Shown: positions 1-35,311 of the stretch, one piece after another
How positions within the stretch are numbered: the first letter of the stretch is position 1
Layout of the letters: the number at the start of each line of letters is the position of its first letter
IMG/VR virus record: IMGVR_UViG_3300045988_070681
Strand: one strand, 5' to 3'
DNA from: a virus
Length of the DNA stretch: 35,311 nucleotides
Translations under genes and position numbers: made by a program
Notes under the pieces: generated by a model
Told to the model about the DNA's origin: nothing
Seen by the model: the letters and a program-made list of their open reading frames with translations, nothing else
Databases searched by the model: none

Positions 1-29
1 AAGTGTAAAAGATACAAATTTTAATCATT
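1..29. repeat. Terminal direct repeat; bases 1-29 are identical to 35283-35311 (contig closure of a circular or terminally redundant genome)
   Basis: Read directly: aagtgtaaaagatacaaattttaatcatt at both ends. Implies a unit length of 35,282 bp. Confidence 0.95.
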
Positions 30-118
30 TACAAGCAAAAACGCCAACTCGTTATGAATCAGCGTTTTAAGTTTTTAAGTGTAAAAGATGGAAGGGCATT
101 TATAAAAGATGAAAAGCA

Positions 119-697
119 TTATTTGCCGAAATCGGCTGAAAAATTCACGTGAATTGTAGATTTCGGGTTTTTATTCGAAACTGTGATTTTTTGGACCGGT
201 TTCCCGATTTTGAAGAATAAAAACTTTTTTTGCTTCACCGATCCGATCACGTCCAGCGTATCAACGCTATTAAATTCTATTTTAGTTGTGCCCGGTCCGG
301 CGGTTATTTCTATATTGTTCCATCCGTCATTGTACTTTGCCGTCCTGACGTCCCCGACGTGTACCGTCTTAATAACTGTGTCGACCTTCGTTACCACTTC
401 GGTACGGGTCGAGTTCTTTAGCTCCCTAATCTTTATCCCCGCCTCGCGTACCTTATTATATAGGTCAGCGTTGTATAATTCCAGCTCGCCCTTCTCCAAT
501 TTCAATTGCCTAGCTTGTTCCGCATAATCACCCGCCGTGGTCCTGAATGCTACAGCCTTGGCGTTAAGCGCGGTAATGTTGTTTTCCTTCCTTTCTAGCT
601 CTTTTCTCTGTTTTTGTACTGTCTTGTATGATGCATATAATAAAATGGCTAGAAGGACAAGCAAACACAATAATATCTTATCTAATGTTATTTTCAT
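119..697 (-). CDS. Membrane-anchored coiled-coil protein; possible spanin-like lysis accessory protein
   Basis: ATG at 697 overlaps the endolysin stop (ATGA). N-terminal hydrophobic helix LLCLLVLLAILLY is followed by a charged heptad-like stretch. Last gene of the lysis cassette. The function is inferred from position only. Confidence 0.55.
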   Translation of the reverse strand: MKITLDKILLCLLVLLAILLYASYKTVQKQRKELERKENNITALNAKAVAFRTTAGDYAEQARQLKLEKGELELYNADLYNKVREAGIKIRELKNSTRTEVVTKVDTVIKTVHVGDVRTAKYNDGWNNIEITAGPGTTKIEFNSVDTLDVIGSVKQKKFLFFKIGKPVQKITVSNKNPKSTIHVNFSADFGK

Positions 698-3124: not shown

Positions 3125-3646
3125 TTATTCGAACTCCTTCAGACCTTCCTCGGCTGCTGCTGCTGCCTTATTTGCGGCGCGTGTGGCTGCTGCCTTCTTC
3201 GCTGCCTCGCTGCGTTTTGCCGCCGCTGCTGCCAGGGCTACCGCTTCCGGTTCAGCTTCCGGTTCTGGTTCTGGTTCAGCTTCCGGTTCTGGTTCTGGTT
3301 CTGCTTCCGGTTCTGGTTCTGCTACGTCGCCTTCATCTACTTCTGGGATAGTCACGGCTTCCGGCTGCAAGTCTATGAAATAGTCCTTGTAATCTTCGCT
3401 TGCTTCCATCAGCTCAATAGCTTTCTCATCGGACGTATTGAAAGCGCGGTACACTCTTCCGTCTTCGATAGAGTTGATGAATAGTCCCGGCTTCATCACG
3501 TAACGCGTGTGCTTTCCGGTTGCGTACTGTTCATCGTACCAGCGTTGCGCGAACAACCTGTCAGCCCCGCACGATATGTTCAGTTTCAAATGCGTCATTG
3601 TTTCGCAGAGCGAAACGATTTGCCCTATATCTGTAATTTTTTCCAT
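3125..3646 (-). CDS. Hypothetical protein with an acidic (E-P-E-P-E-A)n linker and an Ala/Lys-rich tail
   Basis: ORF with ATG at 3646. Globular N-terminal half, then the low-complexity repeat encoded by the 3243-3320 tandem repeat. Confidence 0.7.
   Translation of the reverse strand: MEKITDIGQIVSLCETMTHLKLNISCGADRLFAQRWYDEQYATGKHTRYVMKPGLFINSIEDGRVYRAFNTSDEKAIELMEASEDYKDYFIDLQPEAVTIPEVDEGDVAEPEPEAEPEPEPEAEPEPEPEAEPEAVALAAAAAKRSEAAKKAAATRAANKAAAAAEEGLKEFE
3243..3320. repeat. Imperfect tandem repeat (24-bp unit gcttccggttctggttctggttcW built from a 6-bp ggttcN sub-repeat)
   Basis: Read directly. Encodes EPEPEAEPEPEPEAEPEPEPEAEPEA on the minus strand. Confidence 0.9.
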
Positions 3647-14586: not shown

Positions 14587-14984
14587 TACTCGGATAAATT
14601 AAGAGTTATCTCCCAACCTGATTTGGGACTGTCGTATATGTTTTGGCGCTTGGTTACCGCTGCACCTTCTGACACGTACAAGCAAACGGCTTTGCGTGCT
14701 ATGTCGGTTATAACGGCAAACGTCCGATCCAGTACGTCGATCTCGGACGAGCTGTCAGTTTCGTAGAACGACGTGCCCAGTACCTGTATAAGCACGGCGA
14801 CCGAGAACGCCTCGGCGGCGTAGTCGTTATAGTCTTGGCGCCCGCCCGGGATGTCCACAAAGATAAAATCACCCGTTATATCGTTCGCCAGCCGATTACG
14901 TGTAGATTCATCCCCGAAGAATACGGGAAGCGCATGTTGCGCCCCCCATGTTCCAACCTGATCCAATATCCCTCTAAAAGTCAT
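14586..14984 (-). CDS. Hypothetical virion-module protein (132 aa)
   Basis: ATG at 14984, overlapping the end of the 797-aa gene by 11 nt. No motif recognised. Confidence 0.6.
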   Translation of the reverse strand: MTFRGILDQVGTWGAQHALPVFFGDESTRNRLANDITGDFIFVDIPGGRQDYNDYAAEAFSVAVLIQVLGTSFYETDSSSEIDVLDRTFAVITDIARKAVCLYVSEGAAVTKRQNIYDSPKSGWEITLNLSE

Positions 14985-17367
14985 ATTCAGTTTTTACATT
15001 ATCGTCATACGCCGGCGCGTCCTGCGAAGCAATTACACGTTTGCCCGTCCAAACCTTGCTGGCTGTCTGCTTGTATTTGCCGCATAGGGTGACGTAGCCT
15101 GTTGTTGTTATGCTTCCGCTTTCGATCCGTGCGTTGCCTTCCATGATACTCACACCCTCGCATGACGCATTTACCACGGCTGCCGGCGCTACATAGGAAT
15201 TGCCTCCTAGCACCCATGCGTTACCCGAATTGTGGGACCCGAAGAATCGGGCGTTGCCAGCCATCGTTATATTATATTTACCCGCGCCGCCCAATCGTCC
15301 GGCAAACACTGCGTTATCCCTCATATCCAACAATGACAGCCCGGCACTAGCGTTAGCTTCGAATGGCGCGAACACCGCGTTGCCAGACATATAAGCCGCG
15401 CCCGCGATAGGCAGTTGACCCGCCAAAGCGGATGGCGCTTGTACGATAGAGTTCCCACCGAAGTAGCCCGTACCCGTTACGCTCGTATCTATCAACGTAG
15501 CGTTATCTTCTACGCGGACATTCCCGTAGATCATTGCGCCTGTTGCCTTCGTGCTAACGATCCGGCAACCGTTGTACGTTGTGACGGTTACGCCCTTAAC
15601 CTCGTCCAGGGACAATATATCCGATCCGTCGGCTTTCCTCACGGCTACGTACGCATAAATGGCTGTGCGTGCCAGTGCGGCTGGGGCGTTAATGCCGGGT
15701 ACGTACCCAGTGTTTGATAATATCTTATTTTCCGAATCGGTTAAATATATGTTGCATTCCACTCCTGCGGGGGCATCTACTGATACGCCGCCACCCCCTG
15801 AAATTCTAAACGGTCGTAGCACCACGGCGCTAGCGTTATTAGCCACTACCCCCGATATAGTACTCCCGTTAGTAGCCGCGTTGTATAGACCCTTCACCAG
15901 CACCCCGCTGATATCCTGTGTATTGCCCGCCTCGTGCTTCATAGAGTTACCGAACACGTTCGTGCCTTTCAAGTCAAACTTGCCACTCAAATAAGCGTCG
16001 GCGTATATGGTTGTATTATAAGCATCTGACATTGACGACGCGACTGACTTGACGCTCTCGTGTGATTCAACCAATGCGGTTATGATCGTGCCATTAGATA
16101 AGCGGTACATGCCATTAACCTCGGAACTGATTAAAAAATGCCCGGCACCGTTGATTTTACCCAAATCAGCCGTAGCAAGGTCAAAGTTAATGTCCCGGTA
16201 CGTGTTGGCGATCTGCGCATGGTGGTAGAAACGCCCGTTGTTCAGGTTGCATTTGTAGAACCTGATGGGCACTCCTGCCGTCTGCATAGCCGCCAGTCCG
16301 GGAAAGTTCGTAGTGTTCACTACCATGTTGCCACAGTTGTACGCCTGGATCAGCGAACGGGCTTGTGCGTTAAAGGCTATGCCTGGATGCGATCCGGAAA
16401 AGGCTAGGTTATTAACGCCGTGATAAATGCCTACCGCCTGCGCGTCTGCTGTTGCCGCGTCGATTGTGGCGTTAACGCTTATAAATTCTGACATTAACCT
16501 AACGGCACGCGGAGCGTTAGGTGCCCCATTTATAACCACGCTAGAGTCCTGTATGATGCTATCCGGGTACCTAATTCCGGATGTTATTGAATTTTGCCCG
16601 CCCGGGAATAAGTCTACCTCCGCCGTAGCTGTAACCGGGTTAATTTCAACGCGTGAATCAACTATGACTAATTTAGTTTCATGTGTCCCGGTGAATTTGA
16701 TTTGAGCGGCTGTTGCGTCTGCCGGGACTATCGTACCCGTTGGCTCCTTTCGCAGGCGGATAAAGAAGTATTGCCCTGCGGGTATTGTAAACGAAACGCC
16801 TGCGCCCGTTACAACCTGTGACGATGCCGCGCCTGTTGTAATTCCGTCCGCGTCCGTAGTGTACCATGTCACCGCGTACCCCTCTACGGCACATTTTACC
16901 GTTACAGGAACGCCGCCCGAAAATATAAGGGCTTTAGACCGTATGTAACTAGCGCTGGCAGCCTTCATAGTTTCCCAGTTGGCGCCCGCGGCATAATTAA
17001 AGCCGCCTTGCTCGAAGTCATTCGCCCCTAGCGCTACGGCGTCCGCCGCTGTCTGTTCCGACGCGAACCGCAATTTACTGCCAACTACTACGCTAGACCC
17101 TAGGATGCCTACGGCTGGCGTGCCTGTGGCGCTTAGTGCCGCCTCGCCTACATCTACGACAGAATCCCCTCCGATCCGTGCTCCTGGAAAGTTAAAGTTG
17201 CCTCTAAACAGCCAGCATGCGCCGTCCTGTGATAATGTCTTCTCGTCGTACACGATGCCGCCCACGTCGCCAATATTGACGTAACGGTCTCCCACCTGCC
17301 ACGAACGAAGGGCGCGTACCCTCTTGTCGCTCCCTACTGTAATGATTTCATACTTCTTTGATCCCAT
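14974..17367 (-). CDS. Beta-helix-repeat tail fibre/spike-like protein
   Basis: 797 aa. The N-terminus KKYEII..KRVRALRSW..IGDVGG.VYDEKTLSQDGACW resembles a family of phage repeat (hexapeptide/bactofilin-like) proteins. The C-terminal half has recurring GN(A/S).(V/F) turns. Residues 117-223 are shared with the 836-aa protein. Confidence 0.6.
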   Translation of the reverse strand: MGSKKYEIITVGSDKRVRALRSWQVGDRYVNIGDVGGIVYDEKTLSQDGACWLFRGNFNFPGARIGGDSVVDVGEAALSATGTPAVGILGSSVVVGSKLRFASEQTAADAVALGANDFEQGGFNYAAGANWETMKAASASYIRSKALIFSGGVPVTVKCAVEGYAVTWYTTDADGITTGAASSQVVTGAGVSFTIPAGQYFFIRLRKEPTGTIVPADATAAQIKFTGTHETKLVIVDSRVEINPVTATAEVDLFPGGQNSITSGIRYPDSIIQDSSVVINGAPNAPRAVRLMSEFISVNATIDAATADAQAVGIYHGVNNLAFSGSHPGIAFNAQARSLIQAYNCGNMVVNTTNFPGLAAMQTAGVPIRFYKCNLNNGRFYHHAQIANTYRDINFDLATADLGKINGAGHFLISSEVNGMYRLSNGTIITALVESHESVKSVASSMSDAYNTTIYADAYLSGKFDLKGTNVFGNSMKHEAGNTQDISGVLVKGLYNAATNGSTISGVVANNASAVVLRPFRISGGGGVSVDAPAGVECNIYLTDSENKILSNTGYVPGINAPAALARTAIYAYVAVRKADGSDILSLDEVKGVTVTTYNGCRIVSTKATGAMIYGNVRVEDNATLIDTSVTGTGYFGGNSIVQAPSALAGQLPIAGAAYMSGNAVFAPFEANASAGLSLLDMRDNAVFAGRLGGAGKYNITMAGNARFFGSHNSGNAWVLGGNSYVAPAAVVNASCEGVSIMEGNARIESGSITTTGYVTLCGKYKQTASKVWTGKRVIASQDAPAYDDNVKTEYDF

Positions 17368-18323: not shown

Positions 18324-19497
18324 CTAATCATTATTTGCGTATCTCGGGCGGTATTTGCGTATAAGGTAATCAACGCCGTAACGTATGGCGTCCCATGCGT
18401 GGTTGTAAGCGTCTATCGGCTCGTTGGTGTATGTGTCGGTCAAGTTGTCCTTGACGTAGGTGTAATTGTCTGCCTCGTCCAGCACGTTCGTGCTCCGCTT
18501 CGTTACGAACAGGTTGAACTGCTTCACCTGCTGGATGCCCGCCCTTATCGACCCTTTCCCCTTGATGCAGGGGATCGTGTTGCATCCCAAGCCGCGTAGC
18601 TCTATGATAGACTTCTGCTCGGCGTTGTCGCATACGGTTATGGTACGGTGCAGCCCTTCGTCCTTAAGCCGCCCGGCGATCGTGCGGTTGAGCATCTTCG
18701 TCTCGTAGCACACTTCATCTATATATAAGTTCATGCCCCGCATGTATATTTTTGACGATAGCGGTCGGGTCGTTCTGGAAGCCGAAATCAAGCCCTGTGA
18801 CTAACTTAACGTCCTCGCCCGTTAGATCCTCCGGCAATGCGTCGATCGTCTCAATTTGGGGATATACGAGCCCTTCCAGCCCGCCAGTCAGCCCTTCACC
18901 GTAGACGCGCCACCAATTGGCGTCCTTGGCGTTCCGTTCGATCGCCTCTACCTGCTGCTTGGACAGGTACGGGTTATCCTTGTAGGTTGAGTGGACCGTT
19001 ACGTACTTGTCGCCTGTGAAGTCCGTCTCGCCCCAGAAGCGGCGCACCGGGTTGAAGGCAATAATAACCTTGAGCGTGGTACGTACGTCCAACTGCCGGA
19101 ATATCTCGCGGGGTATGCGCTGCGCCTCGTTGATGAAAAGGATGTCACGCGCCGGACCGTGGACCTTTGACGCGTTGTCACACCCGAAGAACTCGATACG
19201 GACGCCCGGCTTCACCGTGTAGACCATATCCGACTTGTTTAATGAGTTCTCGTCCCACAGCCCCTCGTCTAACAGCATGTTCTGGAAGTCGCGGAACATG
19301 CCGCGCTTCACGGCGGGCAACGTGTCGGTAACACACGAGATCATTAACGGGTCGGGGCTTTCCCTAGCCACGAGGTAAAGGAGTTGCAACACGCTCCACG
19401 TCTTAGAGGAACGCGTACCGCCTTTGCTGGCGATCCCCCTTATGTTCGGGTCTACAAAATGTTCTACCATCTTGTTGAAGACATAGGTGCAATTCAT
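18324..19497 (-). CDS. terL: Terminase large subunit (PBSX/XtmB-like), with the reading frame broken at a T5/A5 run (18749-18753)
   Basis: ORF 18715..19497 carries a Walker A-like GGTRSSKT and ends ..GLDFGFQNDPTAIVKNIHAGHELIYR*. ORF 18324..18791 continues in the +1 frame with IYMRGMNLYIDEVCYE... (nuclease domain, ..AWDAIRY..). Removing one A restores DPTAIVKIYMRGMNLYIDEV, the normal terminase junction. Confidence 0.85.
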
Positions 19498-20204
19498 TTC
19501 TTCTCCTCCTCGCCTTTATGGTCCTTCTTGAAGTCCTTAAGTTTCCCCATCCTCGCAGACACTTTCGGGTCGGTGACGTTAACGGTCAAGCCGCCCTTGA
19601 TGCTCTCACCGTTAGACGTGTAGTCCATCTGCATCTTGATCCCTCGCAGCGCCCTAATGTATTGCGCGTCGAATTGCCCGACGCTCGCCCCCTGGTCCAT
19701 GTCCGCCGCGATCTCGGCGCGTATGCGGTCTATCGTCTCGACGAACTCCTCGCATACCGACAAACCGAACTCTTCGAAATTCTTCGTATAGGTGTTCCGG
19801 CGTTCGTGCAGGTACTTCACCCCAGCCCCTAGGAAAGCCGTAAACTCGCTTTCGCTCTGGAGGTGCTTCTTTGGCACTTCATAGAGCGTCCCGGCTGCCG
19901 GACCGGACTTTATCGCCTCGTACACTATAACGGGCGTAGCCTCGCACCAAGCGGTGTAGATCGCGTACGCTTCCCATAGCTCGGCGGGGTCCTGCCAGAC
20001 AGGCGTCTTGCCGAACCGGCGCGTAGCCAACTGGTAGCACCTGGTGCACTCGAACGAATCGGAGAGGTACTGTGTGGACGCGTATGTCGGTCGTATCGCC
20101 CCGCCGCCACACGCAGCTTTAATCCTCTCCGCCGCCACGGGCTTCTCCTTTGGAAGCTCCACGGGCTTCGTAGTCTCTGTTATTTGTTTCTTCCTTGTAG
20201 CCAT
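19494..20204 (-). CDS. terS: Terminase small subunit
   Basis: 236 aa, ATGA-coupled to terL. PAELWEAYAIYTAWCEATP and the C-terminal FDAQYIRALRG pattern resemble small-terminase families. First gene of the late block. Confidence 0.65.
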   Translation of the reverse strand: MATRKKQITETTKPVELPKEKPVAAERIKAACGGGAIRPTYASTQYLSDSFECTRCYQLATRRFGKTPVWQDPAELWEAYAIYTAWCEATPVIVYEAIKSGPAAGTLYEVPKKHLQSESEFTAFLGAGVKYLHERRNTYTKNFEEFGLSVCEEFVETIDRIRAEIAADMDQGASVGQFDAQYIRALRGIKMQMDYTSNGESIKGGLTVNVTDPKVSARMGKLKDFKKDHKGEEEKK

Positions 20205-20275
20205 ACAATTTTATTTTACAACTCTACAAAAATACGCTTTTTCCGCCCAAATCGCCATCTTTCCGCCTATCAAAA

Positions 20276-20650
20276 CTATCTTTTACGCCTGAAACTCCGA
20301 TGAACAGGGCGTTTCAGCCCTAGTGTAAAAGATGTAAAGATGAAAAGATGTTTTTCTATTATTTCCAAAATAAAAAAATACGCCAAAAAAATTATTTAAA
20401 AAAACAATAGTATATTTATGTTAACTATATTATTACTTATTACTATGTACTCCACTAGTATCTATCTTTACATCTTTTACAAATACACTATATTATATGA
20501 TAAAGTACTATAAATAAGCAAGTTAGGTGTAAAAGATACAAATTTTAACCTTTTACATCAAAAACTTGAAAGGTGCGTTCTGCGTCCTGTGGGGCTGGTC
20601 AGGCGTAAAACATGAAACGGCGGTGTAAAAGATGTTTTTCGCTACTTTTT
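20276..20650. promoter_or_regulatory. Control region B: AT-rich non-coding region with about 10 copies of the GTGTAAAAGAT-type motif, upstream of terS
   Basis: Motif copies at 20279-88 (inverted), 20323-33, 20333-42, 20342-50, 20464-72 and 20472-81 (inverted), 20527-39, 20633-44, plus degenerate copies. The layout matches 34990..35311. Confidence 0.8.
20324..20481. repeat. Inverted repeat pair (tgtaaaagatgtaaagat / atctttacatcttttaca, 18/18) flanking a 122-bp AT-rich core
   Basis: Read directly: left arm 20324-20341, right arm 20464-20481. Confidence 0.9.
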
Positions 20651-20783
20651 TGTCAAAAACAGGCTTTTTAGTTAAAATACCGTTAAAATCAAGATTTCTC
20701 TCTAAAAAGTTTTCTCTCACAAAGTTTTTGTAGAAGCGCTCCAAAATTGTGTTAACGATTTTAACACAAAAAAGGATTAACAT
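20553..20783 (-). CDS. Doubtful ORF (76 aa) at the 3' end of the early block
   Basis: ATG at 20783, 13 nt after the upstream stop. However, the ORF is very AT-rich, Lys/Phe/Asn-biased, and its 3' part runs through motif copies of control region B. Confidence 0.25.
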   Translation of the reverse strand: MLILFCVKIVNTILERFYKNFVRENFLERNLDFNGILTKKPVFDKKVAKNIFYTAVSCFTPDQPHRTQNAPFKFLM

Positions 20784-20796
20784 TTTTATACATTAG

Positions 20797-21336
20797 CTAC
20801 AAAACCAGCCCGTATAAAACCTTCCAGTCGTCCAAAATATATTTACATTTCCATTTCTCCGCCCTTTCTACGTTTTCCCATCTCAAAGTACGGTGGTTCA
20901 ACTTGTCCAGCGCCCTGCTGCCATCGCAGTACATGCTGACCCGGTACAGCATTGAAACTTCTATGCCATATTTGTTCATCTCGGTGTCTTTGCTCGTGTA
21001 GATCTCGGTGGTCGCCGTATCATTAAAAAAAAAACCTACCCGCTTCTTGTCCTTGTCACGGTACAACATATTTTCTATTGTCGGTATGCGTTCCGGCTGC
21101 ATCCGCGTATTGCGGTCGTCCCGTACTTTGCTAGCTGCGTGCATTATGTCCCGGACCACCTCGCAGAATATCCCTGCGTTTACGGCGTGAAACGGTTTGC
21201 CCTTCACCTTGGCGTACTTCACGCCGTTCGCCTCAAGCCAATTGAATATAAAAAATGCATGGATATTATAAACGCGTGCCATATCCTCGACTAATAAAAC
21301 CTTTCTCTGTTTCTTCTTAATATATGGTGTCGGCAT
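20797..21336 (-). CDS. Hypothetical protein (179 aa)
   Basis: ATG at 21336. Contains an A10/T10 homopolymer (21025-21034) in frame. No family recognised. Confidence 0.65.
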   Translation of the reverse strand: MPTPYIKKKQRKVLLVEDMARVYNIHAFFIFNWLEANGVKYAKVKGKPFHAVNAGIFCEVVRDIMHAASKVRDDRNTRMQPERIPTIENMLYRDKDKKRVGFFFNDTATTEIYTSKDTEMNKYGIEVSMLYRVSMYCDGSRALDKLNHRTLRWENVERAEKWKCKYILDDWKVLYGLVL

Positions 21337-21337
21337 A

Positions 21338-21436
21338 CTATAAATTATTTAAGATACATACTAAAACATAGCCTAACGCGATCCCCGCCGCGATTGCCAG
21401 GACCATTTGTCCCAGCATTTTCATTGCCTCCTTCAT
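21338..21436 (-). CDS. Small hydrophobic peptide (32 aa), not on the ORF track
   Basis: MKEAMKMLGQMVLAIAAGIALGYVLVCILNNL. The ATG overlaps the upstream stop (ATGA), and the stop is 1 nt before the next ATG. One predicted transmembrane helix. Confidence 0.35.
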   Translation of the reverse strand: MKEAMKMLGQMVLAIAAGIALGYVLVCILNNL

Positions 21437-21648
21437 TTCGCCAGCGCCTCCCTTAATTCTGATATGAGACGCAACGCCTCAACTCTTGATAAGTCCACCC
21501 TCCGCTCCGGCTCGTTCTTCCGGTAAATAATGATGGTCGTTACCTCCTTTGCGTTCCTCGGTACGCGTTCGGCGTAGACCATAACCTTCTCGGCTTCCGC
21601 CCTGCCTATCTTCACTCTCATCTCATGTTCTCTGAATAAATGTTCCAT
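21433..21648 (-). CDS. Hypothetical protein (71 aa)
   Basis: ATG start, compact spacing. No motif recognised. Confidence 0.55.
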   Translation of the reverse strand: MEHLFREHEMRVKIGRAEAEKVMVYAERVPRNAKEVTTIIIYRKNEPERRVDLSRVEALRLISELREALAK

Positions 21649-21674
21649 AACTTTAAAATATTAATTTGATTAAC

Positions 21675-21926
21675 TTAAATAGTCCAAACCATCGTCCCAT
21701 GTCCGGTAAAGCCGCCAACCGCGGTTAGTGGTACGGCGAAAAGGAAATGTTTCCAGCGGTTAGGCGCTTTCTTACTACTGCCTATTGCATCTACGCACAC
21801 CCAGCCCCTAGGGCACATGCACGGCTCGCCGCGCTTATTGGACGCGCACCCGGCTCGAAAAATATAGGCTTTGCTTTTTTCATAGTCCTTCAAGCATTGT
21901 AAAGCCCATGTCCATTTTCCAAGCAA
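21675..21926 (-). CDS. Hypothetical Cys-rich protein; start uncertain
   Basis: The track start at 21926 is TTG and overlaps the upstream gene by 47 nt. The first in-frame ATG (MCPRGW...) is at 21818. Confidence 0.4.
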   Translation of the reverse strand: MLGKWTWALQCLKDYEKSKAYIFRAGCASNKRGEPCMCPRGWVCVDAIGSSKKAPNRWKHFLFAVPLTAVGGFTGHGTMVWTI

Positions 21927-22119
21927 ACGGAACTGCGCCTATATTATAACCATACTTTACACAATCTTTTTCAGGGAGTGTGCAAAATATTGATAACCTG
22001 TTCGGCAATACCGGATCATACACATAGTACCCTTCTTTCCGGTTCTTTCCTCGATACACGTATCGTACACCGTCTGCCAGTTCTACGATATCACCCACTT
22101 TGTAATTTGCTTTTTTCAC
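21880..22119 (-). CDS. Hypothetical protein (79 aa), GTG start
   Basis: The GTG at 22119 overlaps the SNF2 stop (GTGA). There is no nearby in-frame ATG. Confidence 0.55.
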   Translation of the reverse strand: MKKANYKVGDIVELADGVRYVYRGKNRKEGYYVYDPVLPNRLSIFCTLPEKDCVKYGYNIGAVPFAWKMDMGFTMLEGL

Positions 22120-23489: not shown

Positions 23490-23500
23490 CTTCCAGTTTT

Positions 23501-23761
23501 TTATAAAACACGCTTACCTTGTCCATACGTTTGAACGCCATGCAATTCTATCGGCGCACGGGCAAATAGCACAATCCCGGCTACTGCTCCGTTGTGTTGG
23601 AAACGCCCAAACAGGTGATACGCCCTGTCGGGGCTGGACGGCGGCTCGCCGCCTATGTTTGCGAGGAAAACACACCCGCTACATAAACCGTTGCTCCTCA
23701 CGCATTGGACGGTCTTTCCTTCGTCCGTGGTGAATGCCTCACCTGCTATATGCTCTTTCAT
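23501..23761 (-). CDS. Hypothetical protein (86 aa)
   Basis: ATG at 23761, coupled to the upstream small ORF. No motif recognised. Confidence 0.5.
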   Translation of the reverse strand: MKEHIAGEAFTTDEGKTVQCVRSNGLCSGCVFLANIGGEPPSSPDRAYHLFGRFQHNGAVAGIVLFARAPIELHGVQTYGQGKRVL

Positions 23762-23910
23762 AACTTTGTTATTATTAATATGTGTAACGGCTCGACACTA
23801 ACACGTTTACTAATTGAATTCATTACAATGGCTCTTACATCAGCCCCCACCACTACGAACTGTATTATAGTCCCGGTGTATTCTTTGTTGTGCCCGTATA
23901 TGCACTTCAT
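23758..23910 (-). CDS. Small ORF (50 aa), not on the ORF track
   Basis: MKCIYGHNKEYTGTIIQFVVVGADVRAIVMNSISKRVSVEPLHILIITKL. ATGA overlaps at both ends (with the stop of 23907..24335 and the start of 23501..23761). Confidence 0.4.
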   Translation of the reverse strand: MKCIYGHNKEYTGTIIQFVVVGADVRAIVMNSISKRVSVEPLHILIITKL

Positions 23911-24335
23911 AAGCCCAAATCTTTTTTATACAACATATCGTAAATGTCATCTAATGTGTAACGTTCCGGAAAACATTTAAGTACTTCGGCGACCACGTCC
24001 AGAATGTCGGGAAACTGTGATTTAATCCCCAAAAGGTCTTTGATCGCGCCTGCCTTGCCAGCGTTAAACACTTCTTCCCTGTACACCTCGGTTATTACAT
24101 CAGCGCCTTCGAATACCACGCCGTCTCCCTTGTGGAGTTCCCGGCGGCTGTACTCGCGCCGTAGTATTGCGTCCGGCACTTCTGATATCAGGAACTGCTG
24201 CAAGTTCTCCGGTAATTGCTTGATAGCGTCCCCGATCGCGTAGCCCTCGGCGGGCGTTCCGTTCGCCATCTTCGTAACCACATCACAAAATAGGTTGATG
24301 CGGTCTATCTTAAGTTTCTTATTGAAGTCTACCAT
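23907..24335 (-). CDS. Hypothetical protein (142 aa)
   Basis: ATG start, tight packing. No motif recognised. Confidence 0.6.
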   Translation of the reverse strand: MVDFNKKLKIDRINLFCDVVTKMANGTPAEGYAIGDAIKQLPENLQQFLISEVPDAILRREYSRRELHKGDGVVFEGADVITEVYREEVFNAGKAGAIKDLLGIKSQFPDILDVVAEVLKCFPERYTLDDIYDMLYKKDLGL

Positions 24336-24337
24336 GG

Positions 24338-24748: not shown

Positions 24749-24752
24749 GGTC

Positions 24753-25184
24753 TTACTTATTATTGGTTATTGCTTCCGCCATCTTCCTAAGCTCGCTACG
24801 CGAGATATTAACGGTGAATTGCTTTCCCTGGCTGTGGATCATCCAAACCGCAGTAAATTTAGAATATTGCGCGGTGTTATCCCCTGGGTTGTTGAGGTTT
24901 ACTATCTCGTTGCTACTTGACGGCTTGTACTCTGCAAGGCTTAAGAGCGTCTTAACCGCCGCGTCCGCGTCTCCTAACCTTATATCCATTTCTAGGGAAT
25001 TTGTTCCGGCTGCTTGTCCGGTGATTTGGTACGTTACCGCGCCGCCCTTCGTGACTTCCACGATCTTACAGGTTCCAAGACGGAAAGACTTAAGCGTTTT
25101 CAAGCGTCCGCTTGCGGTTGATACTTGCGCCATCGCGCTAACTGATAACAAAACTACTGCTAAAATACATACTAACTTTTTCAT
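24753..25184 (-). CDS. Secreted/periplasmic protein with a cleavable signal peptide (143 aa)
   Basis: The track start at 25220 is GTG inside the conserved leader. The ATG at 25184 gives MKKLVCILAVVLLSVSAMA-Q, a classic n-h-c signal with an AxA site. It has its own consensus promoter. Confidence 0.7.
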   Translation of the reverse strand: MKKLVCILAVVLLSVSAMAQVSTASGRLKTLKSFRLGTCKIVEVTKGGAVTYQITGQAAGTNSLEMDIRLGDADAAVKTLLSLAEYKPSSSNEIVNLNNPGDNTAQYSKFTAVWMIHSQGKQFTVNISRSELRKMAEAITNNK

Positions 25185-25222
25185 AACTTTAATTTTTAAG
25201 TGGTTATTTCCTTTTGACACTT

Positions 25223-25253: not shown

Positions 25254-25298
25254 ATACAGGATAAACTATTAACATCAATTCGCACTAACCGCCATGAG

Positions 25299-25607
25299 TT
25301 AACGACCGTTAACATAAAAGTCTATCAAGTCCTTCAAATCGTTGTACTCGTCAGGGCTAGATACTACGCGTACGTTGAAGCCAAGCGCGGCGATCCGGTC
25401 GAGTATAACGCGCTGAACCGGTCGGGGCTTGCATCCGGTTGACTTGAACTCGGCAAAAATAACCGTCCCGCCTGGTAACAAGTACATTCGGTCCGGCAAA
25501 CCGTTAATGAATTGGGATAACAATTTGATTGCCATCCCTCCTTTATTCTCCACGTACTTAGACATAGTACGCTCAAATACCTTTTCGCTAGTTTCCGTTG
25601 CCTTCAT
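25299..25607 (-). CDS. VRR-NUC domain nuclease
   Basis: GLPDRMYLLPGGTVIFAEFKSTGCKPRPVQRVILDRIAALGF fits the PD...(D/E)xK...Q VRR-NUC pattern. About 100 aa, the typical size. Confidence 0.8.
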   Translation of the reverse strand: MKATETSEKVFERTMSKYVENKGGMAIKLLSQFINGLPDRMYLLPGGTVIFAEFKSTGCKPRPVQRVILDRIAALGFNVRVVSSPDEYNDLKDLIDFYVNGR

Positions 25608-26155: not shown

Positions 26156-26156
26156 A

Positions 26157-26396: not shown

Positions 26397-26398
26397 GA

Positions 26399-26886: not shown

Positions 26887-27111
26887 TTAATTTTTTAATG
26901 ATTTGATTTGTCTTTCCAATAAACGCGCCCTGCTAGCTTCATTATCTGCAAATTCATTTTGACCTATTGACCTGTAATAATCGGCGTTTTCTTTAGCGTT
27001 TTCAAGTGCCCTTTGTTTTTCCTGGATCATCCGTGATTTTTCGGAATTGCCATTTCTGATTATTACATCCTCTAGGGCGGTTCTTCTTGTTAATTCGATA
27101 GTTGCTTTCAT
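26887..27111 (-). CDS. Small coiled-coil protein (74 aa)
   Basis: The track start at 27147 is GTG inside the conserved leader. The ATG at 27111 gives MKATIELTRR... It has its own consensus promoter. Confidence 0.6.
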   Translation of the reverse strand: MKATIELTRRTALEDVIIRNGNSEKSRMIQEKQRALENAKENADYYRSIGQNEFADNEASRARLLERQIKSLKN

Positions 27112-27149
27112 ATCTTTAATTTTTAATTGGTTATTTCCTTTTGACACCT

Positions 27150-27305: not shown

Positions 27306-29696
27306 TCACAAAGATAGTAATTTTTTGCTTTCCTCGCTACCTTTACGGATATAAACTACTTGTGCGCCGTACAATTTAGTCCTATTTAACTTTCCTTTAA
27401 ACCATCCTTTCATTTGCCGTATCGCTGTGGACAATTCGCGCCCTTTCGCGCTTGTATAATCTTCTTTCCGGCGTCCCAGCGCATCCACCCAAAGCTCCAT
27501 TAAACAGAACTCGTTTTTAACCGTGTCGCCGGTCTCACCCAGACCGCCCGACAGGAAGTCGGCGCGTTGTTGTTCGGTGCGCTCTTCGTAGTCAGCCGGG
27601 AAAAGCCTGTCCACGTAGTTCTCTATAACGCCTACTAGCGGGCTTTCTTCTGTAAATTCTTCGCGTCCCTCGTTAGCGATCGCTTCGGCTTCGTCAGACA
27701 AAACAAGGCTTTCGCCCAACATGTACAGCTCCATTGCTTCCGCCCAAAGTTGGTCTATTACTGCCTCGAAAGACTTTTCAAACAGCTTGTGCGTGTTTTT
27801 GTTGGCGCGTACCTCTATCGGGAAGAAACGGCGGTTGCCGGTCTTGTCCTTCAAAAACTCATCATCATTGGTAGACCCGAAAAATACGCATTGCCTGCGG
27901 TGTGTCTTGACACGGCGGGCGTACGCGCTACGATACGTATCTTCGCGTTTGCTGATAAAGTTCTTCGTGGCTTCCACGTCCGAACGGCGAAGGGCTGACA
28001 ACTCGGCTAGCTCCACTATCCAAGCATGTTGTATCGCTTCATACGCTTTTTGCCCCGATACATCGGTTAATGAATCGTTGAACCAACCTTTTGAAAGGGA
28101 CTGTATAAGCGTGGACTTTCCCGCACCTTGACCTGAATACATGACAAGCGCCGTATCAAATTTGCGTCCCGGCTCGTACACCCTGGTAACGGCGGCTACC
28201 AGCATTTTACGGAACGCCTCGGACACGTATATGCTAGGCTCTGCCCCCATGTAGTCAACTAAGAAATTATCTATCCGTTTCACGCCGTCCCATCTTTGCG
28301 CCTCTAGGTATTTTTTGATAGGGTGGAAAGCGTTTTCACTGCAAACCTTTTCCAGTGCATCGTTTAATTTGCTGTCATTATAAATACCGTGCAAGTCCTC
28401 TATACGTCCGCGGATAATCGCTACGGCGGTATCGTCCAGCATGTCGCCCTTCTTGATGTCATTCGAGAAGAACGGCGTACGGGTGTACACGATCGTATCA
28501 AGGAACAAGTCATATGCTAATAGACCATTGAGCAGGGGATCGCATTTGAACGCGTTGACAAAGTTCCGGACGGTGCACATTTTATCGCCCTTCTTATCCA
28601 GGTCCCAAACAAGTTCGGCGGCGGTTTGCGCGTCGCCCTTAACATCGTCCGTGTATTCCTCGAAGTCACTTAGGTTGCCGTCAACGGCTACCATGTCCTT
28701 AACACATTCCTTATCGGAGCAAACCAGCTTGTTCATTTCCCGGCTGCTGTCTTCCTTGCCCAGATGCCCGAATTTGTGCACCCGTACGAGGTCATAGGCG
28801 TTATAAGCGTGCCCGTCCCCGATCGGGTCGGTTGAGTGGTGGGAAAAACAAAGCACATCGTCATACACAACCAAGCCCGCCGCGCCTGATCCAAGCGCGT
28901 AGGTGTATCGTCCGTTGTCTACTTCCGTGTAAACATCTGGCAAGTATTTATCTATGGCTTCGGGGATCGTGTACGAGCGGCAAAACGCGCCTACTAAGCC
29001 CTCTTTGTCGCGCGGGTCTTTCGCCATCTCCTTGCTGATAAGCGCGCGGGTATCGCGTTCCACATCTGAATGGAACGCCCAATTGCGCACGTCGCGCCAT
29101 TCTTCATTGTCTCCGTACAAGCCTATCAGGTACCCGGCGTCGATCGGCTCGCCTTCAAATACTTCAAACATCCCCTCCTGGTCTTTGGAAAGAGATTGCC
29201 AGTACATCATGCGTTCGGGCTGGAACGTTGTTTTGTCGAACAAGTCTATGCCCAGCAACTCGGCTACTTTCCGCGCTGCTGCCTCGTACATAACCACGTC
29301 GGTAACTTCTTCCTTGAAAGGCATGATAAGACGGTAACGGCGCGCGCCTGGTCTATCCGAACGCGTTGTATATATAACCGCTGCGTATCCGTGGAAACGG
29401 TCCTCAAAATCGATTGGGAAAAGGTCGTCGGCAAAGTCAATATCTAACGTTATCATAGTACGGGATATAACTGCCTTTTTCAGGCGTTGCGGTCCTGAAA
29501 GCTCGCCCGCCATGAATCCGCCTACGTCCTTCAAGGACGATTTGGCGGGCTTATCCAGCTTATCGTACTCGCGTACCGTTTCGTTAGTGATAACGGGCGT
29601 TCCTAAACGTTTTACAAAATCGTCCCATGTGAGGCGCACCGCCTTCCATTTCAGGGATGCCGAAGAACCTGCAAGTGATAAGGTGTATTTTTCCAT
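27306..29696 (-). CDS. Primase-helicase fusion (AEP prim-pol N-terminus with a VirE/D5-like SF3 helicase C-terminus)
   Basis: N-terminal MITLDIDF (AEP DxD motif). C-terminal Walker A SGQGAGKST and the downstream VFFGSTND/RRFFPIEV pattern are typical of D5/VirE-type phage primase-helicases. Confidence 0.8.
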   Translation of the reverse strand: MEKYTLSLAGSSASLKWKAVRLTWDDFVKRLGTPVITNETVREYDKLDKPAKSSLKDVGGFMAGELSGPQRLKKAVISRTMITLDIDFADDLFPIDFEDRFHGYAAVIYTTRSDRPGARRYRLIMPFKEEVTDVVMYEAAARKVAELLGIDLFDKTTFQPERMMYWQSLSKDQEGMFEVFEGEPIDAGYLIGLYGDNEEWRDVRNWAFHSDVERDTRALISKEMAKDPRDKEGLVGAFCRSYTIPEAIDKYLPDVYTEVDNGRYTYALGSGAAGLVVYDDVLCFSHHSTDPIGDGHAYNAYDLVRVHKFGHLGKEDSSREMNKLVCSDKECVKDMVAVDGNLSDFEEYTDDVKGDAQTAAELVWDLDKKGDKMCTVRNFVNAFKCDPLLNGLLAYDLFLDTIVYTRTPFFSNDIKKGDMLDDTAVAIIRGRIEDLHGIYNDSKLNDALEKVCSENAFHPIKKYLEAQRWDGVKRIDNFLVDYMGAEPSIYVSEAFRKMLVAAVTRVYEPGRKFDTALVMYSGQGAGKSTLIQSLSKGWFNDSLTDVSGQKAYEAIQHAWIVELAELSALRRSDVEATKNFISKREDTYRSAYARRVKTHRRQCVFFGSTNDDEFLKDKTGNRRFFPIEVRANKNTHKLFEKSFEAVIDQLWAEAMELYMLGESLVLSDEAEAIANEGREEFTEESPLVGVIENYVDRLFPADYEERTEQQRADFLSGGLGETGDTVKNEFCLMELWVDALGRRKEDYTSAKGRELSTAIRQMKGWFKGKLNRTKLYGAQVVYIRKGSEESKKLLSL

Positions 29697-32484: not shown

Positions 32485-33648
32485 TTAGCCTTCTACGTCG
32501 AAGTCGCAGAGCGGGCTATATTCCACGCCCTTAGCCGATTCAGGTACTAGCTTTGGCGCTCCGGGTCTCGATTCGATAGCGTCTCCGAACCTCGCGCTAA
32601 ATGCCTTTTTGCCTACCAGCTTTTCGAGATCGCCGATACCCTTTAGTTTGATGTTTAAAACCTCGTCCTCGAGGAACTCGTTTAGGAGCGCTTGGCGTAT
32701 CTTCGCCTCGTCCTTGATAACTCGGCTTGTCCTACCCGCTACGAGCTTGTAGCCCTCCCATTTGTGCCCCTGCATCGCCCTATCGTAGACGTACTTATTA
32801 ACCGATTCGATCCAGCTCTTATACGTGTCTATTTTGCCGATTAGGTCTACTATCTCCTCGTCTGATAATAACAGGGGCTCGGGCTTCCCGTCGAAGTCTG
32901 CAAGAATTGCGTCACGTTGTGCCCTGCATTGGGCTTTGACCGGGCAAAAACCGCACCAGCTTCCGATAACCTGTTTTCCTACGCCCTGTATCGCCTTCTT
33001 TGCGGCTGGTTTTAGGACTTTCTCCGCCCACGCTAACAAATCCTTCTTAGGCATTTCGAACGTGTCGTAATGGTCTAATCTGACTTGCGCGATCGTCATC
33101 CGAATTTTCTCGGTATGGTCCGTTTCCGGGCTTTTCAAGGTTCCAAGGGCGTACATTAACATTTGTTCGTTCATGCCGGCGTACACCTTCACGCCCGCAC
33201 CGTACTTCAAATCTATAATGTGTATCGTCTTGCCAGATACAAGTGTCACGTCTACCGATCCGAAGGAGCCCGGCGCGAAGTCTGTAATGTCTACCCGGCG
33301 CTCTAGGTACATCCGGCACGCGCCATCCTGTTTTTGCATCTCGTAGCCTTCTCCGATAACAAACTCGCAATAGCTCCGTATATAGTCCGCCATATCGATA
33401 CTGAAGAGCGTGTTTTCAAGATGTTCGTTTTTCAACGGTACTGCATCATCAACTATCGGGTCGTATTCACCTTCCAGGTATTTGGTCAAAGCGTATTCGG
33501 CTATCTCGTGTGCTAGTGTCCCCTCCTCTGCGTAAACGCTTGGCTTGCCGCCTGCTTCTTCTGCAAGTAGTGCAGACGGCGTGCAGTTGATCCACCGTTT
33601 CGCACTACTAGGCGATAAAATCGCATGGTCCCTTTCCGCGTGTCCCAT
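32485..33648 (-). CDS. DUF2800-type PD-(D/E)XK (Cas4-like) nuclease
   Basis: SPSSAKRWINC, IHIIDLKYG (DxK) and the C-terminal CGFCPVKAQC give a Cas4-like 1+3 Cys arrangement. This is the canonical partner of DUF2815 and PolA. Confidence 0.8.
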   Translation of the reverse strand: MGHAERDHAILSPSSAKRWINCTPSALLAEEAGGKPSVYAEEGTLAHEIAEYALTKYLEGEYDPIVDDAVPLKNEHLENTLFSIDMADYIRSYCEFVIGEGYEMQKQDGACRMYLERRVDITDFAPGSFGSVDVTLVSGKTIHIIDLKYGAGVKVYAGMNEQMLMYALGTLKSPETDHTEKIRMTIAQVRLDHYDTFEMPKKDLLAWAEKVLKPAAKKAIQGVGKQVIGSWCGFCPVKAQCRAQRDAILADFDGKPEPLLLSDEEIVDLIGKIDTYKSWIESVNKYVYDRAMQGHKWEGYKLVAGRTSRVIKDEAKIRQALLNEFLEDEVLNIKLKGIGDLEKLVGKKAFSARFGDAIESRPGAPKLVPESAKGVEYSPLCDFDVEG

Positions 33649-34205
33649 TACAGGCGAGTTGAGATGTATTCGATGAACTCCGCAAACATAGATTCCTTAA
33701 GTGTCGGGAAAGACGTTGCTCCTACCTGTTCAAACGCTTCTTGTACAATATGGCGTTTCTTTGCGTTTAAAGCCTTCATAGCCCACTGCTTGCACTCTTC
33801 CACTGTGTGCTCCGTTTCGTCCTTAGCGGGCTTCCCTACCGGTGCGGCGGGGGCGGGCGCTTCTGCTGGTGCTGGTGCTTCTGCTGGTGCAGGTGCTTCT
33901 GCTGGTGCTGGTGCTTCTGCTGGTGCTGGTGCTTCAACCTTTGCAGGTTCTTCCACCTTCTTCGTGCGGCTCGCCCTATTCTTAGCGCGTTCCTCGGCTA
34001 TGTGTTCCGATACGGTTTTGACTTGTGCGGCTTCTTCACCCTTCACCTTCGTTGCTTCTGCCACGGCGTCCGCCAACTTGTCAAGACCTGTTTTCTTCTC
34101 GGTCATCGCGGGTGCGGTTTCGCCTGCCAGCTCGCGCAAATAATTAGATGTTGCCAACAAATCCTGTTTACTCTCTGTTCCTGATAATTCGATTACTACT
34201 TTCAT
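33648..34205 (-). CDS. Hypothetical protein with an (APAPAE)n linker
   Basis: 185 aa. The ATG at 34205 overlaps the HTH ORF stop (ATGA). The central repeat is encoded by 33859-33936. Confidence 0.65.
   Translation of the reverse strand: MKVVIELSGTESKQDLLATSNYLRELAGETAPAMTEKKTGLDKLADAVAEATKVKGEEAAQVKTVSEHIAEERAKNRASRTKKVEEPAKVEAPAPAEAPAPAEAPAPAEAPAPAEAPAPAAPVGKPAKDETEHTVEECKQWAMKALNAKKRHIVQEAFEQVGATSFPTLKESMFAEFIEYISTRL
33859..33936. repeat. Tandem repeat, 18-bp unit gcttctgctggtgctggt x 4.3
   Basis: Read directly. Units at 33859, 33877 (one substitution), 33895 and 33913, plus a partial unit. Confidence 0.95.
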
Positions 34206-34381
34206 TTTTTCTTAAAATTAAAAATTGTTTCTAATAGCTCGTTTTTGTTCACTCTGATTTTTCCTACGCCGTTCTCGTACCGGGTGAGCTTTCCCGAATT
34301 GAGTTGATAGCGTATCGCGTTCTCCGTAACCTCGGCGATCCGGGCGGCTTCCGCGACTGTGATTAACTCGGCTTTTTCCAT
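34202..34381 (-). CDS. Small helix-turn-helix DNA-binding protein (excisionase/MerR-like HTH_17 type, 59 aa), not on the ORF track
   Basis: Hand translation gives MEKAELITVAEAARIAEVTENAIRYQLNSGKLTRYENGVGKIRVNKNELLETIFNFKKK. The pattern (hT..EaA...gvs...i...i..G.l......g...r....el..) is typical. The stop overlaps the next ATG (ATGA). Confidence 0.6.
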   Translation of the reverse strand: MEKAELITVAEAARIAEVTENAIRYQLNSGKLTRYENGVGKIRVNKNELLETIFNFKKK

Positions 34382-34698
34382 TTCATTTTGTTATTGAATT
34401 TAAAACTAAGTTCATTAGAGCCCCTGAAGGTTTTAACGTGATCAGAAAATGCGGCTTTCCGGGCTTGTTCGAAAATGCTTTCGTACCGTTTGGCATGCGG
34501 AATTATAAAGCCCCGAATTTTATATTTGAATTTTTTTCCGGCTTCTTCTTCTCGTAGCAAAGCTTTGTAGACCATTCCCGAAATACCCGGATAGCCGTAT
34601 ATATTCGTTACCTCTCCTATCGTTTCGCACGCCTTGATCCTCTCCGTTATAACCATGTAAAAGAACGCTTCTAACCTATAAATGTTTATCCCTGCCAT
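34363..34698 (-). CDS. Hypothetical protein (111 aa), first long ORF of the early block
   Basis: ATG at 34698. No motif recognised. Confidence 0.6.
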   Translation of the reverse strand: MAGINIYRLEAFFYMVITERIKACETIGEVTNIYGYPGISGMVYKALLREEEAGKKFKYKIRGFIIPHAKRYESIFEQARKAAFSDHVKTFRGSNELSFKFNNKMKWKKPS

Positions 34699-34911
34699 AT
34701 CTAGTAATATTTAATCCGGTTCTCCGTCTAGGAATAGGATAATAAGTTTATTATGGCTTTTCAGTTATTTATCGTCGGAGATTCGGGCTTTATAGCTTCA
34801 ATTAAGCGGAAACCGCACCTTCTTTTCAAATGAACTAGGATACCATCCGTGTTTCCCGTCTCGCGTCCTTTGGTTACGATTGGCGACGCTCTCATTTCTC
34901 TTTCGATGTCA

Positions 34912-34941
34912 CAAAGGTAACGCTTTATTTTGGACTACAAA
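34912..34941 (-). promoter_or_regulatory. Bacteroidota-type early promoter P3 (TTTG, 18 nt, TACCTTTG)
   Basis: The minus strand reads TTTGtagtccaaaataaagcgtTACCTTTGtgacatcgaaag. The TTTG(g)TAGTCC and TTTG..GTG.CA..AAAG flanks resemble P1 and P2. Confidence 0.65.
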
Positions 34942-34989
34942 AATATTTCCCAAAAAACTTTAGTAATTTAACTCTGATTAACTGTTTTG

Positions 34990-35311
34990 AAGGTTTGATA
35001 ACAGTGTAAAAGACAAATAGCCCTTTTTAAGTGGATCTTTACACCCTTAACTGCGTGCGTATCAGTTAGTTATGTGGCGAAAACGGGTGATATGTAAAAG
35101 ATGTAAAGATGATTTCTATAAAGTTTAAAATAAAATATTTCCATAAATTCATTCACATATTAATTCATATATTTACATATTTTATAGATTATCTCATATT
35201 TATCTGTTAGTTCTATATATCATCTTTACATCTTTTACATTAGATATATATTGATAGATAAAGTACTAGTTATTAGTGAGTTAAGTGTAAAAGATACAAA
35301 TTTTAATCATT
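34990..35311. promoter_or_regulatory. Control region A: AT-rich non-coding region with GTGTAAAAGAT-type motif copies, upstream of the early block (continues into 1-118 across the circular junction)
   Basis: Motif copies at 35004-13, 35035-45 (inverted), 35093-35103, 35102-12, 35221-29 and 35230-39 (inverted) and 35285-97, then 79-90 and 101-110 after the junction. Confidence 0.8.
35093..35239. repeat. Perfect 20-bp inverted repeat (tgtaaaagatgtaaagatga / tcatctttacatcttttaca) flanking a 107-bp AT-rich core
   Basis: Read directly: left arm 35093-35112, right arm 35220-35239. Confidence 0.95.

Follow-up and report, generated by a model that had tools for sequence, protein, structure and literature searches.

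We analyzed IMG/VR virus record IMGVR_UViG_3300045988_070681, a stretch of 35,311 nucleotides (hereafter the window) holding the genome of a Bacteroides siphophage, and concentrated on its only two long non-coding stretches, region B (20205-20796), upstream of the terminase gene terS, and region A (34699-35282 + 1-118), upstream of the early genes. Comparison with relatives, together with structural modelling, leads us to propose, with a probability of roughly 0.7, that A and B are a duplicated origin module of the type known from the Staphylococcus aureus pathogenicity islands (SaPIs) and phage P4, serving the phage's own superfamily 3 (SF3) primase-helicase. The 9-10-bp repeats of both regions would be iterons, read by the C-terminal winged helix of this enzyme. 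Two to three tandem iterons per side face each other across an AT-rich stretch of 105-122 bp; a hexamer would form at either flank to open this stretch, and the neighbouring inverted pair with its 10-bp A/T centre would be a second, tighter binding unit. We infer that A and/or B fire as origins and, from the coordinated changes of the motif in A and B, that one protein binds both regions. The pair might comprise two firing origins, or one origin with a barrier or enhancer, or might have added promoter control.

Architecture of regions A and B

Both ends of the window carry the same 29 nt (1-29 = 35283-35311), which makes it a circular assembly of 35,282 bp. Every plausible gene in the map of open reading frames (ORFs) lies on the minus strand. 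The features of the two regions are the following.

20205..20796, minus strand: region B, all of the non-coding DNA that separates the last early/middle gene (20797..21336) from terS (19494..20204) in the ORF map
20227..20234, minus strand: canonical Bacteroides -7 promoter box TATTTTTG of region B, 22 nt upstream of the terS ATG, conserved in relatives
20278..20318: iteron (20278-20287) and short palindrome TGAAAC/GTTTCA (20290-20316) of region B, between the arms and the promoter
20324..20350: promoter-proximal iteron arm of region B, three tandem units TGTAAAAGA/TGTAAAGA/TGAAAAGATG
20342..20463: AT-rich spacer of region B, 122 nt, 81% A+T, proposed DNA unwinding element
20464..20481: distal iteron arm ATCTTTACATCTTTTACA of region B, two tandem units in the opposite direction
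20499..20510: box GATAAAGTACTA, region B copy, conserved in the Bacteroides ovatus-type group only
20528..20557: short-spacer inverted iteron pair of region B, TGTAAAAGAT, a 10-nt A/T centre, then ACCTTTTACA (box 7 of an earlier note on this DNA)
20604..20633: outlying iterons of region B, CGTAAAACAT at 20604 and TGTAAAAGAT at 20624
34699..35311, minus strand: region A, part 1, non-coding DNA that precedes the first early ORF (34363..34698) and runs into 1..118 over the circular junction
34938..34945, minus strand: canonical -7 promoter box TATTTTTG, region A copy, some 240 nt ahead of the first early ORF
35092..35113: promoter-proximal iteron arm ATGTAAAAGATGTAAAGATGAT of region A
35114..35218: AT-rich spacer of region A, 105 nt, 85% A+T, kept among the A copies of 31 relatives
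35219..35240: distal iteron arm ATCATCTTTACATCTTTTACAT of region A
35257..35268: box GATAAAGTACTA, region A copy
1..118, minus strand: region A, part 2, with a short-spacer inverted pair at 4-33 and outlying iterons at 80-89 and 101-110
36-67: hairpin in region A part 2, after the last late gene (119..697)

Region B has three plus two iteron units and region A two plus two, running in opposite directions around the AT-rich centre, and the arms are fully complementary in both (18/18 for 20324-20341 and 20464-20481, 22/22 for 35092-35113 and 35219-35240). The counterpart of the short palindrome in region A differs in sequence. All eight elements that the earlier note had listed were found at their places and in the same order in A and B, and its placement of B upstream of terS and of A upstream of the early genes was correct; its order of elements, however, is reversed along transcription, the genes all being encoded on the minus strand. 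Read along transcription, each copy begins with the end of the upstream operon, followed by the outlying repeats, the inverted pair with its 10-bp A/T centre, the TAGTACTTTATC box and the tandem repeats, and continues with the AT-rich spacer, the inverted tandem repeats, the short palindrome, one or two more repeats, the TATTTTTG box and the first gene of the operon. The Bacteroides -7 consensus is TAnnTTTG; a -33 TTTG at proper spacing was sought at the TATTTTTG boxes of regions A and B and was absent.

Equivalent points of A and B lie 14,758 bp apart and divide the circle into arcs of 14,758 and 20,524 bp, as had been estimated (about 14.8 and 20.5 kb), and the reported 28-mer is indeed 27/28 identical between the copies (20521-20548 vs 35279-35306). 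A and B have just 22 nt of identity. The contig break falls inside the conserved 28-mer and adjoins this sole 22-nt stretch, which is why the assembler may have cut at the repeat.

A search for TGTAAAAGAT with at most one mismatch gave 16 matches, against 2.7 expected from shuffled sequences, none of which reached 16. After removal of the 29-nt overlap, 8/8 exact and 13/15 one-mismatch sites were located within A + B, which make up 1,294 bp or 3.7% of the genome. The motif scan therefore upheld the restriction of the motif to two loci, whereas the statement that none is found in coding DNA was slightly too strong, because one-mismatch copies occur there at 21964 and 34656. The figure of about 20 motif copies is reached once the 9-nt variants GTAAAGAT and GAAAAGAT are added. 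The sigma-70 promoter and terminator scan, which is uninformative for Bacteroides, found no terminator on the gene strand of A and B. A 76-aa ORF in region B (20553..20783) is not conserved; among the 31 aligned, just a single relative besides the window genome has it intact.

Conservation of the module and change of the repeat among relatives

Region B was taken from 58 viral contigs and region A from 72, four complete GenBank genomes were read, and 31 B copies and 31 A copies from B. ovatus-type genomes were aligned. In these 31 genomes A and B are more conserved than the surrounding coding DNA, yet hold no conserved ORF. The nucleotide conservation of region B is very high, the sequence of its spacer is kept among the B copies and is unlike that of the region A spacer, and the central TTAAAATTTGTA of the short-spacer pair is kept in nearly all of them, the half-sites varying with the motif type.

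Alignment with relatives, which the earlier note had suggested, showed that the architecture is retained in four diverged groups with different repeats. Phages of the B. ovatus type carry TGTAAAAGAT or TGTCAAAGAT (ATC.TTTACA or ATC.TTGACA on the sense strand), those of the B. caccae type TGTAATAGAT or TGTCAYAGAT, the B. thetaiotaomicron phage SJC01 TGGATAGATAG, and the Phocaeicola phage BV57P2 GGAACAG/TGTCGGAACA. Every group has the short-spacer inverted pair and the facing tandem arms, with about 110-130 bp of AT-rich spacer between the arms and a TAnnTTTG box downstream, and every group has two copies of the module per genome, at two operon starts. In BV57P2, the two copies are nearly identical over about 300 nt. 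This combination of a constant architecture and a changing word points to sites that co-evolve with a sequence-specific protein and argues against chance, a mobile element or a purely structural element. Because all elements are kept in the four groups and the copies are nearly identical in BV57P2, the comparison indicates that both copies are under selection. They are probably not equivalent, since the spacers are conserved within a lineage and different between A and B.

The number of iterons varies among near relatives. Contigs 050525, 036825 and 058856 (L005, L007 and L009, with the A partners L064, L067 and L065) have 15-16 iterons in A + B, versus 10 in the window by the same count.

Within a genome, the switch between T and G in the repeat is simultaneous in the outlying copies, in both arms and in both regions; in region B, the outlying iterons change between the T and G types in step with the arms. 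This bears on the idea that pairing of the inverted arms, as a long hairpin in a leader or non-coding transcript or as a cruciform, is what matters, and not protein binding. The arms do pair perfectly over 18 and 22 bp, and where A has become C in one arm, T has become G in the other, but the same base change is made in single unpaired copies outside the arms. Moreover, each arm is made of tandem units, individual units persist in several relatives in which the arms are degenerate (BO1, 043817), and there is no Rfam match, so that we hold this explanation to be very improbable.

The alignments also bear on whether A and B could be sites of recombination, form an invertible switch or derive from a small mobile element of the miniature inverted-repeat transposable element (MITE) kind. 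With about 110 bp between terminal inverted repeats, they look like Bacteroides invertible promoters and MITEs, and the copies are direct repeats that split the circle. However, the flanks are shared between the copies and the interior differs, which is the reverse of a mobile element, and the positions are fixed across deeply diverged relatives; the MITE idea was rejected on this anatomy. A Bacteroides inverton was rejected as well, since all 31 B and 31 A copies have a single orientation (0 inverted spacers in 62 aligned assemblies) and no recombinase was found in the window proteins scanned or in the BO1 annotation. With only 22 nt of identity between the copies in addition, the recombination or inversion of direct repeats that had been suggested earlier did not hold up, and this group of explanations now deserves hardly any credence.

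The primase-helicase as candidate initiator

The protein that we propose as the initiator, and its C-terminal domain, are encoded as follows.

27306..29696, minus strand: primase-helicase, 796 aa, proposed iteron-binding initiator (Pfam VapE-like PF05272, E 7e-76; PHROG 256, E 1e-238)
27309..27689, minus strand: C-terminal domain of the primase-helicase, residues 670-796, modelled as a winged helix, with codon 778 at 27363..27365

Residues 385-711 of this protein match SaPI1 Rep1 (PDB 7PDS, E 4e-75), its sole PDB relative by sequence; 7PDS is the structure of SaPI1 Rep1 bound to DNA. The AlphaFold2 model of the last 127 residues (predicted local distance difference test score, pLDDT, 78.7) has the topology helix-helix-strand-helix-helix-hairpin of a winged helix, and its best Foldseek matches were 7pds_B and 7pds_F (E 3e-4, probability 1.0, template modelling (TM) score 0.62-0.64), followed by weaker matches to ORC/Cdc6 winged helices. 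The model rests on a shallow alignment of 18 sequences, because the search for homologues of the C-terminal domain only gave 8 fragments. Since the model spans residues 670-796 only, and the target residues are not listed, we take the matched part of 7PDS to be the C-terminal (origin-binding) domain of Rep1.

The Rep proteins of SaPIs are initiators as well as helicases, and their C-terminal winged helix reads the iterons (PMC9371898). In the SaPI origin, 6-12 iterons surround an AT-rich centre, each side having two or more of them and the two sides running in opposite directions, and two hexamers probably load on it, one per side (PMC9371898). At the level of sequence, regions A and B fit this published definition point by point, and the primase-helicase, judged on its homology and its modelled fold, is most likely the iteron binder.

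The strongest link between the module and the primase-helicase comes from distant homologues. Beside the genes of primase-helicases of about 35% identity in other phages, tandem-iteron inverted repeats such as CGGAACATTGCCCGGAACAT / ATGTTCCGGGCAATGTTCCG were located at most about 170 nt past the match, on the downstream side, at 13/17 loci, and nothing of comparable type was seen on the upstream side of the same 17 loci. At the four loci inspected, the distance from the stop codon to the first repeat ranges from a few nt up to about 20 nt, and the layout is two-tier, namely a close cluster of inverted iterons, a hairpin, and then a pair of tandem iterons separated by a spacer of about 105 nt from a pair of inverted ones. 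Judged by layout, this is the same module as A and B in the position of the SaPI origin, and it suggests that the two-tier iteron module is a general origin signature of VapE-type primase-helicases. The simplest history would be that the Bacteroidales family moved the module off the gene and duplicated it at operon boundaries, setting it at the heads of the early and late operons, each copy just upstream of a host-type -7 box. Of the roles that had been considered for these regions, the first, that of replication origins, is the one that the results support, through the SaPI origin layout (PMC9371898), the presence of a Rep1-like primase-helicase whose modelled C-terminal winged helix matches, and the same module beside the gene in distant homologues.

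At loci L195, L199, L202 and L210 (about 3390-3660), a two-tier module of the GGAACAT type is located right after the stop codon, and its word resembles the GGAACAG of BV57P2.

Covariation of residue 778 with the repeat

The T/G position of the repeat is tracked by residue 778, which the model of the winged helix places at the end of the wing loop. Where this residue is alanine, glutamine, valine or serine, the genomes have T-type repeats only, with one exception (035735), while those with arginine or lysine are G-dominant in 12/14 cases, 047290 being a tie and 038600 the opposite. Proline is always accompanied by both repeat types. The pattern is present separately in the B. ovatus-type and B. 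caccae-type clades, and for contig 053152, which has G-type repeats only, arginine or lysine was predicted before the gene was fetched and arginine was found. The arginine alleles are scattered and do not form a clade, codon 778 has no tightly linked site in the gene, and the pairing of a basic side chain with a G:C base pair is chemically sensible. A nearest-neighbour comparison gave no isogenic contrasts around codon 778, all alleles being about 10% apart. We regard the covariation as supportive and not as proof.

The same comparison was made for the proteins that could bind the repeats as operator arrays, the second role that had been considered. Here a phage regulator (the 59-aa HTH_17 protein, the 111-aa protein or the 179-aa protein) would control the early and late promoters, with no role in replication. 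The position agrees with this proposal, as both copies stand just upstream of -7 boxes without a -33 element, which is often the case in activator-dependent promoters. The inverted pairs with their 10-bp centre resemble dimer operators, the second early gene encodes the helix-turn-helix (HTH) protein, and the spacers and extra boxes are conserved beyond the needs of an unwinding element. However, no residue of the HTH, 111-aa or 179-aa protein separates T-type from G-type genomes (best column differences of 0.42-0.50), unrelated phages carry the module directly after the primase-helicase gene and not at operon starts, and facing tandem iterons across about 110 bp of AT-rich DNA are the published origin layout of this helicase family. 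An exclusively regulatory role is therefore quite unlikely in our opinion, whereas an operator function may exist as a second role beside that of the origin.

Comparison with known replication systems

The likeness to the SaPIs (PMC9371898) comprises the SF3 VapE-like helicase initiator with a C-terminal winged helix, which is fused to a primase in the window as in PriRep5, the short iterons, at least two per side and in opposite directions around an AT-rich centre, and a helicase core homologous to Rep1 with a C-terminal fold that, in the model, matches Rep1. The differences are that the window has two dispersed copies instead of one, located 5-7 kb from the initiator gene instead of immediately downstream of it, that its iterons are of 9-10 bp and not 5-6 bp, and that it has an extra short-spacer inverted pair, each copy being joined to an operon promoter. 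Furthermore, the host belongs to the Bacteroidota and the window is a complete lytic-type phage, while SaPIs are satellites.

The alpha protein of P4 is a multifunctional primase, SF3 helicase and origin-binding protein whose C-terminal winged-helix domain recognises the same iteron at ori and crr. The ori locus consists of direct iterons and crr of two 120-bp repeats; they are about 4.5 kb apart, and the start site is at ori only. An initiator-helicase recognising the same iteron at two loci of one small genome is what we propose for the window as well, but the P4 loci are unlike each other, whereas those of the window share their full architecture. No sequence or fold similarity of the window primase-helicase to P4 alpha was detected in the searches made.

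Two copies of an origin, which the earlier note had found odd, are not so odd in the light of phage SPP1, whose oriL and oriR are about 13 kb apart and are both bound by one initiator (PMC6316719, PMC3485210). Replication starts at oriL, while gp38 bound at oriR has been proposed to hold up the fork and thereby set off the change to concatemer synthesis (PMC6316719, PMC3485210). SPP1 and the window have in common two regions of repeats with AT-rich unwinding DNA on the circularised genome of a headful siphophage, the 14,758-bp distance in the window standing beside the 13 kb of SPP1, and both carry an exonuclease, an annealing or single-stranded DNA-binding protein and a junction nuclease. They differ in the initiator, as the unrelated gp38 depends on a separate loader and on a helicase of the DnaB type, while the window has a VapE-type primase-helicase, PolA, a DUF2800 nuclease, an Enc34-type single-stranded DNA-binding protein and an SNF2 helicase. 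In addition, oriL is inside gene 38, and the SPP1 repeats are direct whereas those of the window face each other. By analogy with the proposal for oriR, the second copy in the window could be a fork barrier formed by the bound initiator that triggers the concatemer switch, or it could couple replication to late transcription.

Origin-binding helicases of eukaryotic double-stranded DNA viruses include the SF3 proteins large T of simian virus 40 (SV40) and E1 of papillomaviruses, and UL9, which acts at oriS of herpes simplex virus (HSV). In these origins, inverted initiator sites flank an AT-rich element and are located between early and late or divergent promoters, and HSV has more than one copy. 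UL9 is a superfamily 2 helicase. The likeness to SV40, E1 and HSV is an analogy of design only, with no sequence relationship past the helicase superfamily.

Observations that weigh against the origin proposal

Several results speak against the proposal that A and B are origins. The window module is not beside the primase-helicase gene, unlike those of SaPIs and of the distant homologues, and the 158-bp gap after this gene has a canonical promoter but no iterons. Both copies adjoin promoters, so that their position is equally compatible with a regulatory role. The AT-rich spacers are strongly conserved within each lineage and must hold further information, because a mere unwinding element needs no such conservation. 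GC skew, computed in sliding windows and as a detrended cumulative curve for five complete genomes, gave no consistent origin signal; maxima were near B, minima wandered from the start of the early genes to the primase-helicase gene, and the pattern followed the gene modules.

The covariation has its weaknesses too. Two clear exceptions were found at residue 778, 038600 (arginine with T-type sites) and 035735 (alanine with G-type sites). Within the B. ovatus-type group taken by itself, residue 778 (p 1.5e-3) is no stronger than linked markers and is surpassed by residue 74 of ORF 14974..17367 (p 5e-6). Because a residue of a tail gene associates better than 778, linkage and population structure must be at work, and the genome-wide association of protein columns with motif type is confounded by population structure. 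Residue 74 (Gly/Ala) belongs to a 797-aa structural/tail protein encoded about 3 kb from B and is almost perfectly linked to the B iteron type in the B. ovatus-type group. This association was rejected as a candidate, since it is absent in the B. caccae-type clade, and is read as hitch-hiking in a haplotype block.

Conserved parts of A and B outside the shared module

Positions 20640-20790 of region B have no counterpart in A and are nearly invariant among the 31 relatives. They contain the direct repeats AAAACTTTGTGAGAGAAA / AAAACTTTTTAGAGAGAAA and, twice, ATTTTAAC, and could be a control site of the late promoter or a packaging signal. This part of B, with its extra conserved direct repeats at 20640-20760 that are absent from A, is one reason for considering region B as the pac region recognized by the small terminase, with region A as a decoy or second packaging start. 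Others are that B abuts terS and that headful packaging is thought to operate in related phages. However, the early genes, too, are preceded by the shared module, distant homologues tie it to the primase-helicase gene, and it does not track with terS, the identity of TerS ranging from 63 to 97% among phages with an identical motif. We judge a packaging function of the module to be extremely doubtful.

In region A, a leader of about 240 nt (34699-34936) extends from the -7 box to the first early ORF; it is conserved, and about 125 nt of it are missing in most relatives. SJC01 has, in the same place (L003, about 20990-21215), a GC-rich element of about 115 nt that is repeated twice. The leader and the SJC01 element could be structured leaders or small RNAs, with no match in Rfam.

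Genome and other observations

In megablast, the window matched Bacteroides siphophages of 35-38 kb at about 81% identity (phages of B. ovatus and B. kribbi). A search with terS gave at least 121 related GenBank records whose hosts are Bacteroides and Phocaeicola; SJC01 and HNL05, both phages of B. thetaiotaomicron, are among them. The wider family is a large group of siphophages of Bacteroides, Phocaeicola and Parabacteroides to which many contigs of gut metagenomes belong as well. The arc 20797-34698 contains the early and replication genes, with the HTH_17 protein, the DUF2800 PD-(D/E)XK nuclease, the Enc34-type single-stranded DNA-binding protein, the family-A polymerase (PolA), the VapE-type primase-helicase and the SNF2 helicase among their products, and the arc 119-20204 contains terS, terL, the structural genes and the lysis genes. 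The BO1 annotation has a VRR-NUC endonuclease at the position equivalent to ORF 25299..25607 of the window, the 102-aa product of which had no match in a Pfam scan. Rfam and tRNA scans gave no match.

The window terL is split into two overlapping ORFs in different frames (18324-19497, minus strand), for the ATPase domain (18715..19497) and the nuclease domain (18324..18791). Since terL of BO1 is a single gene of 390 aa and the window span is 1 nt longer than 1,173 nt, this suggests a frameshift, through a sequencing error or a real mutation.

A direct repeat of 77 nt, 88% identical, is found at 25179-25255 and 27106-27182. On the gene strand it reads TTTG, N19, TATCTTTG, then a shared leader and the start codon, and it is a textbook Bacteroides promoter used twice, for the middle genes 24753..25220 and 26887..27147. 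In-frame tandem repeats are present at 3221-3340 (12 nt, in ORF 3125..3646) and 33829-33953 (18 nt, in ORF 33648..34205). The IMG/VR contigs of many relatives stop about 1.5 kb beyond the last late gene, which by arithmetic corresponds to the repeat at 33829-33953; these ends are probably an assembly break point and not a physical end of the genome.

Implications for the phage family

We found no published description of the replication origins of these phages, nor of the duplicated module. The proposal predicts an origin, an initiator and, with residue 778, a candidate specificity residue for a large family of gut phages. It may provide parts for the design of Bacteroides phagemids or replicons and a route to resistance by origin titration.

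The duplication of the module at operon starts also raises the question of a link among replication, late transcription and packaging. A more speculative version, which we think unlikely, is that the duplicated module is a timing device coupled to replication, in which one initiator-helicase acts on identical sites at the heads of both operons. As the initiator builds up, it would at first start replication and silence the early promoter at A. The B copy ahead of terS would then either activate late transcription or serve as a programmed barrier to the fork, and breakage at this barrier would start concatemer synthesis beside the packaging genes. If true, this device would be a prokaryotic counterpart of the logic of SV40 T antigen, conserved over a large family of human gut phages.

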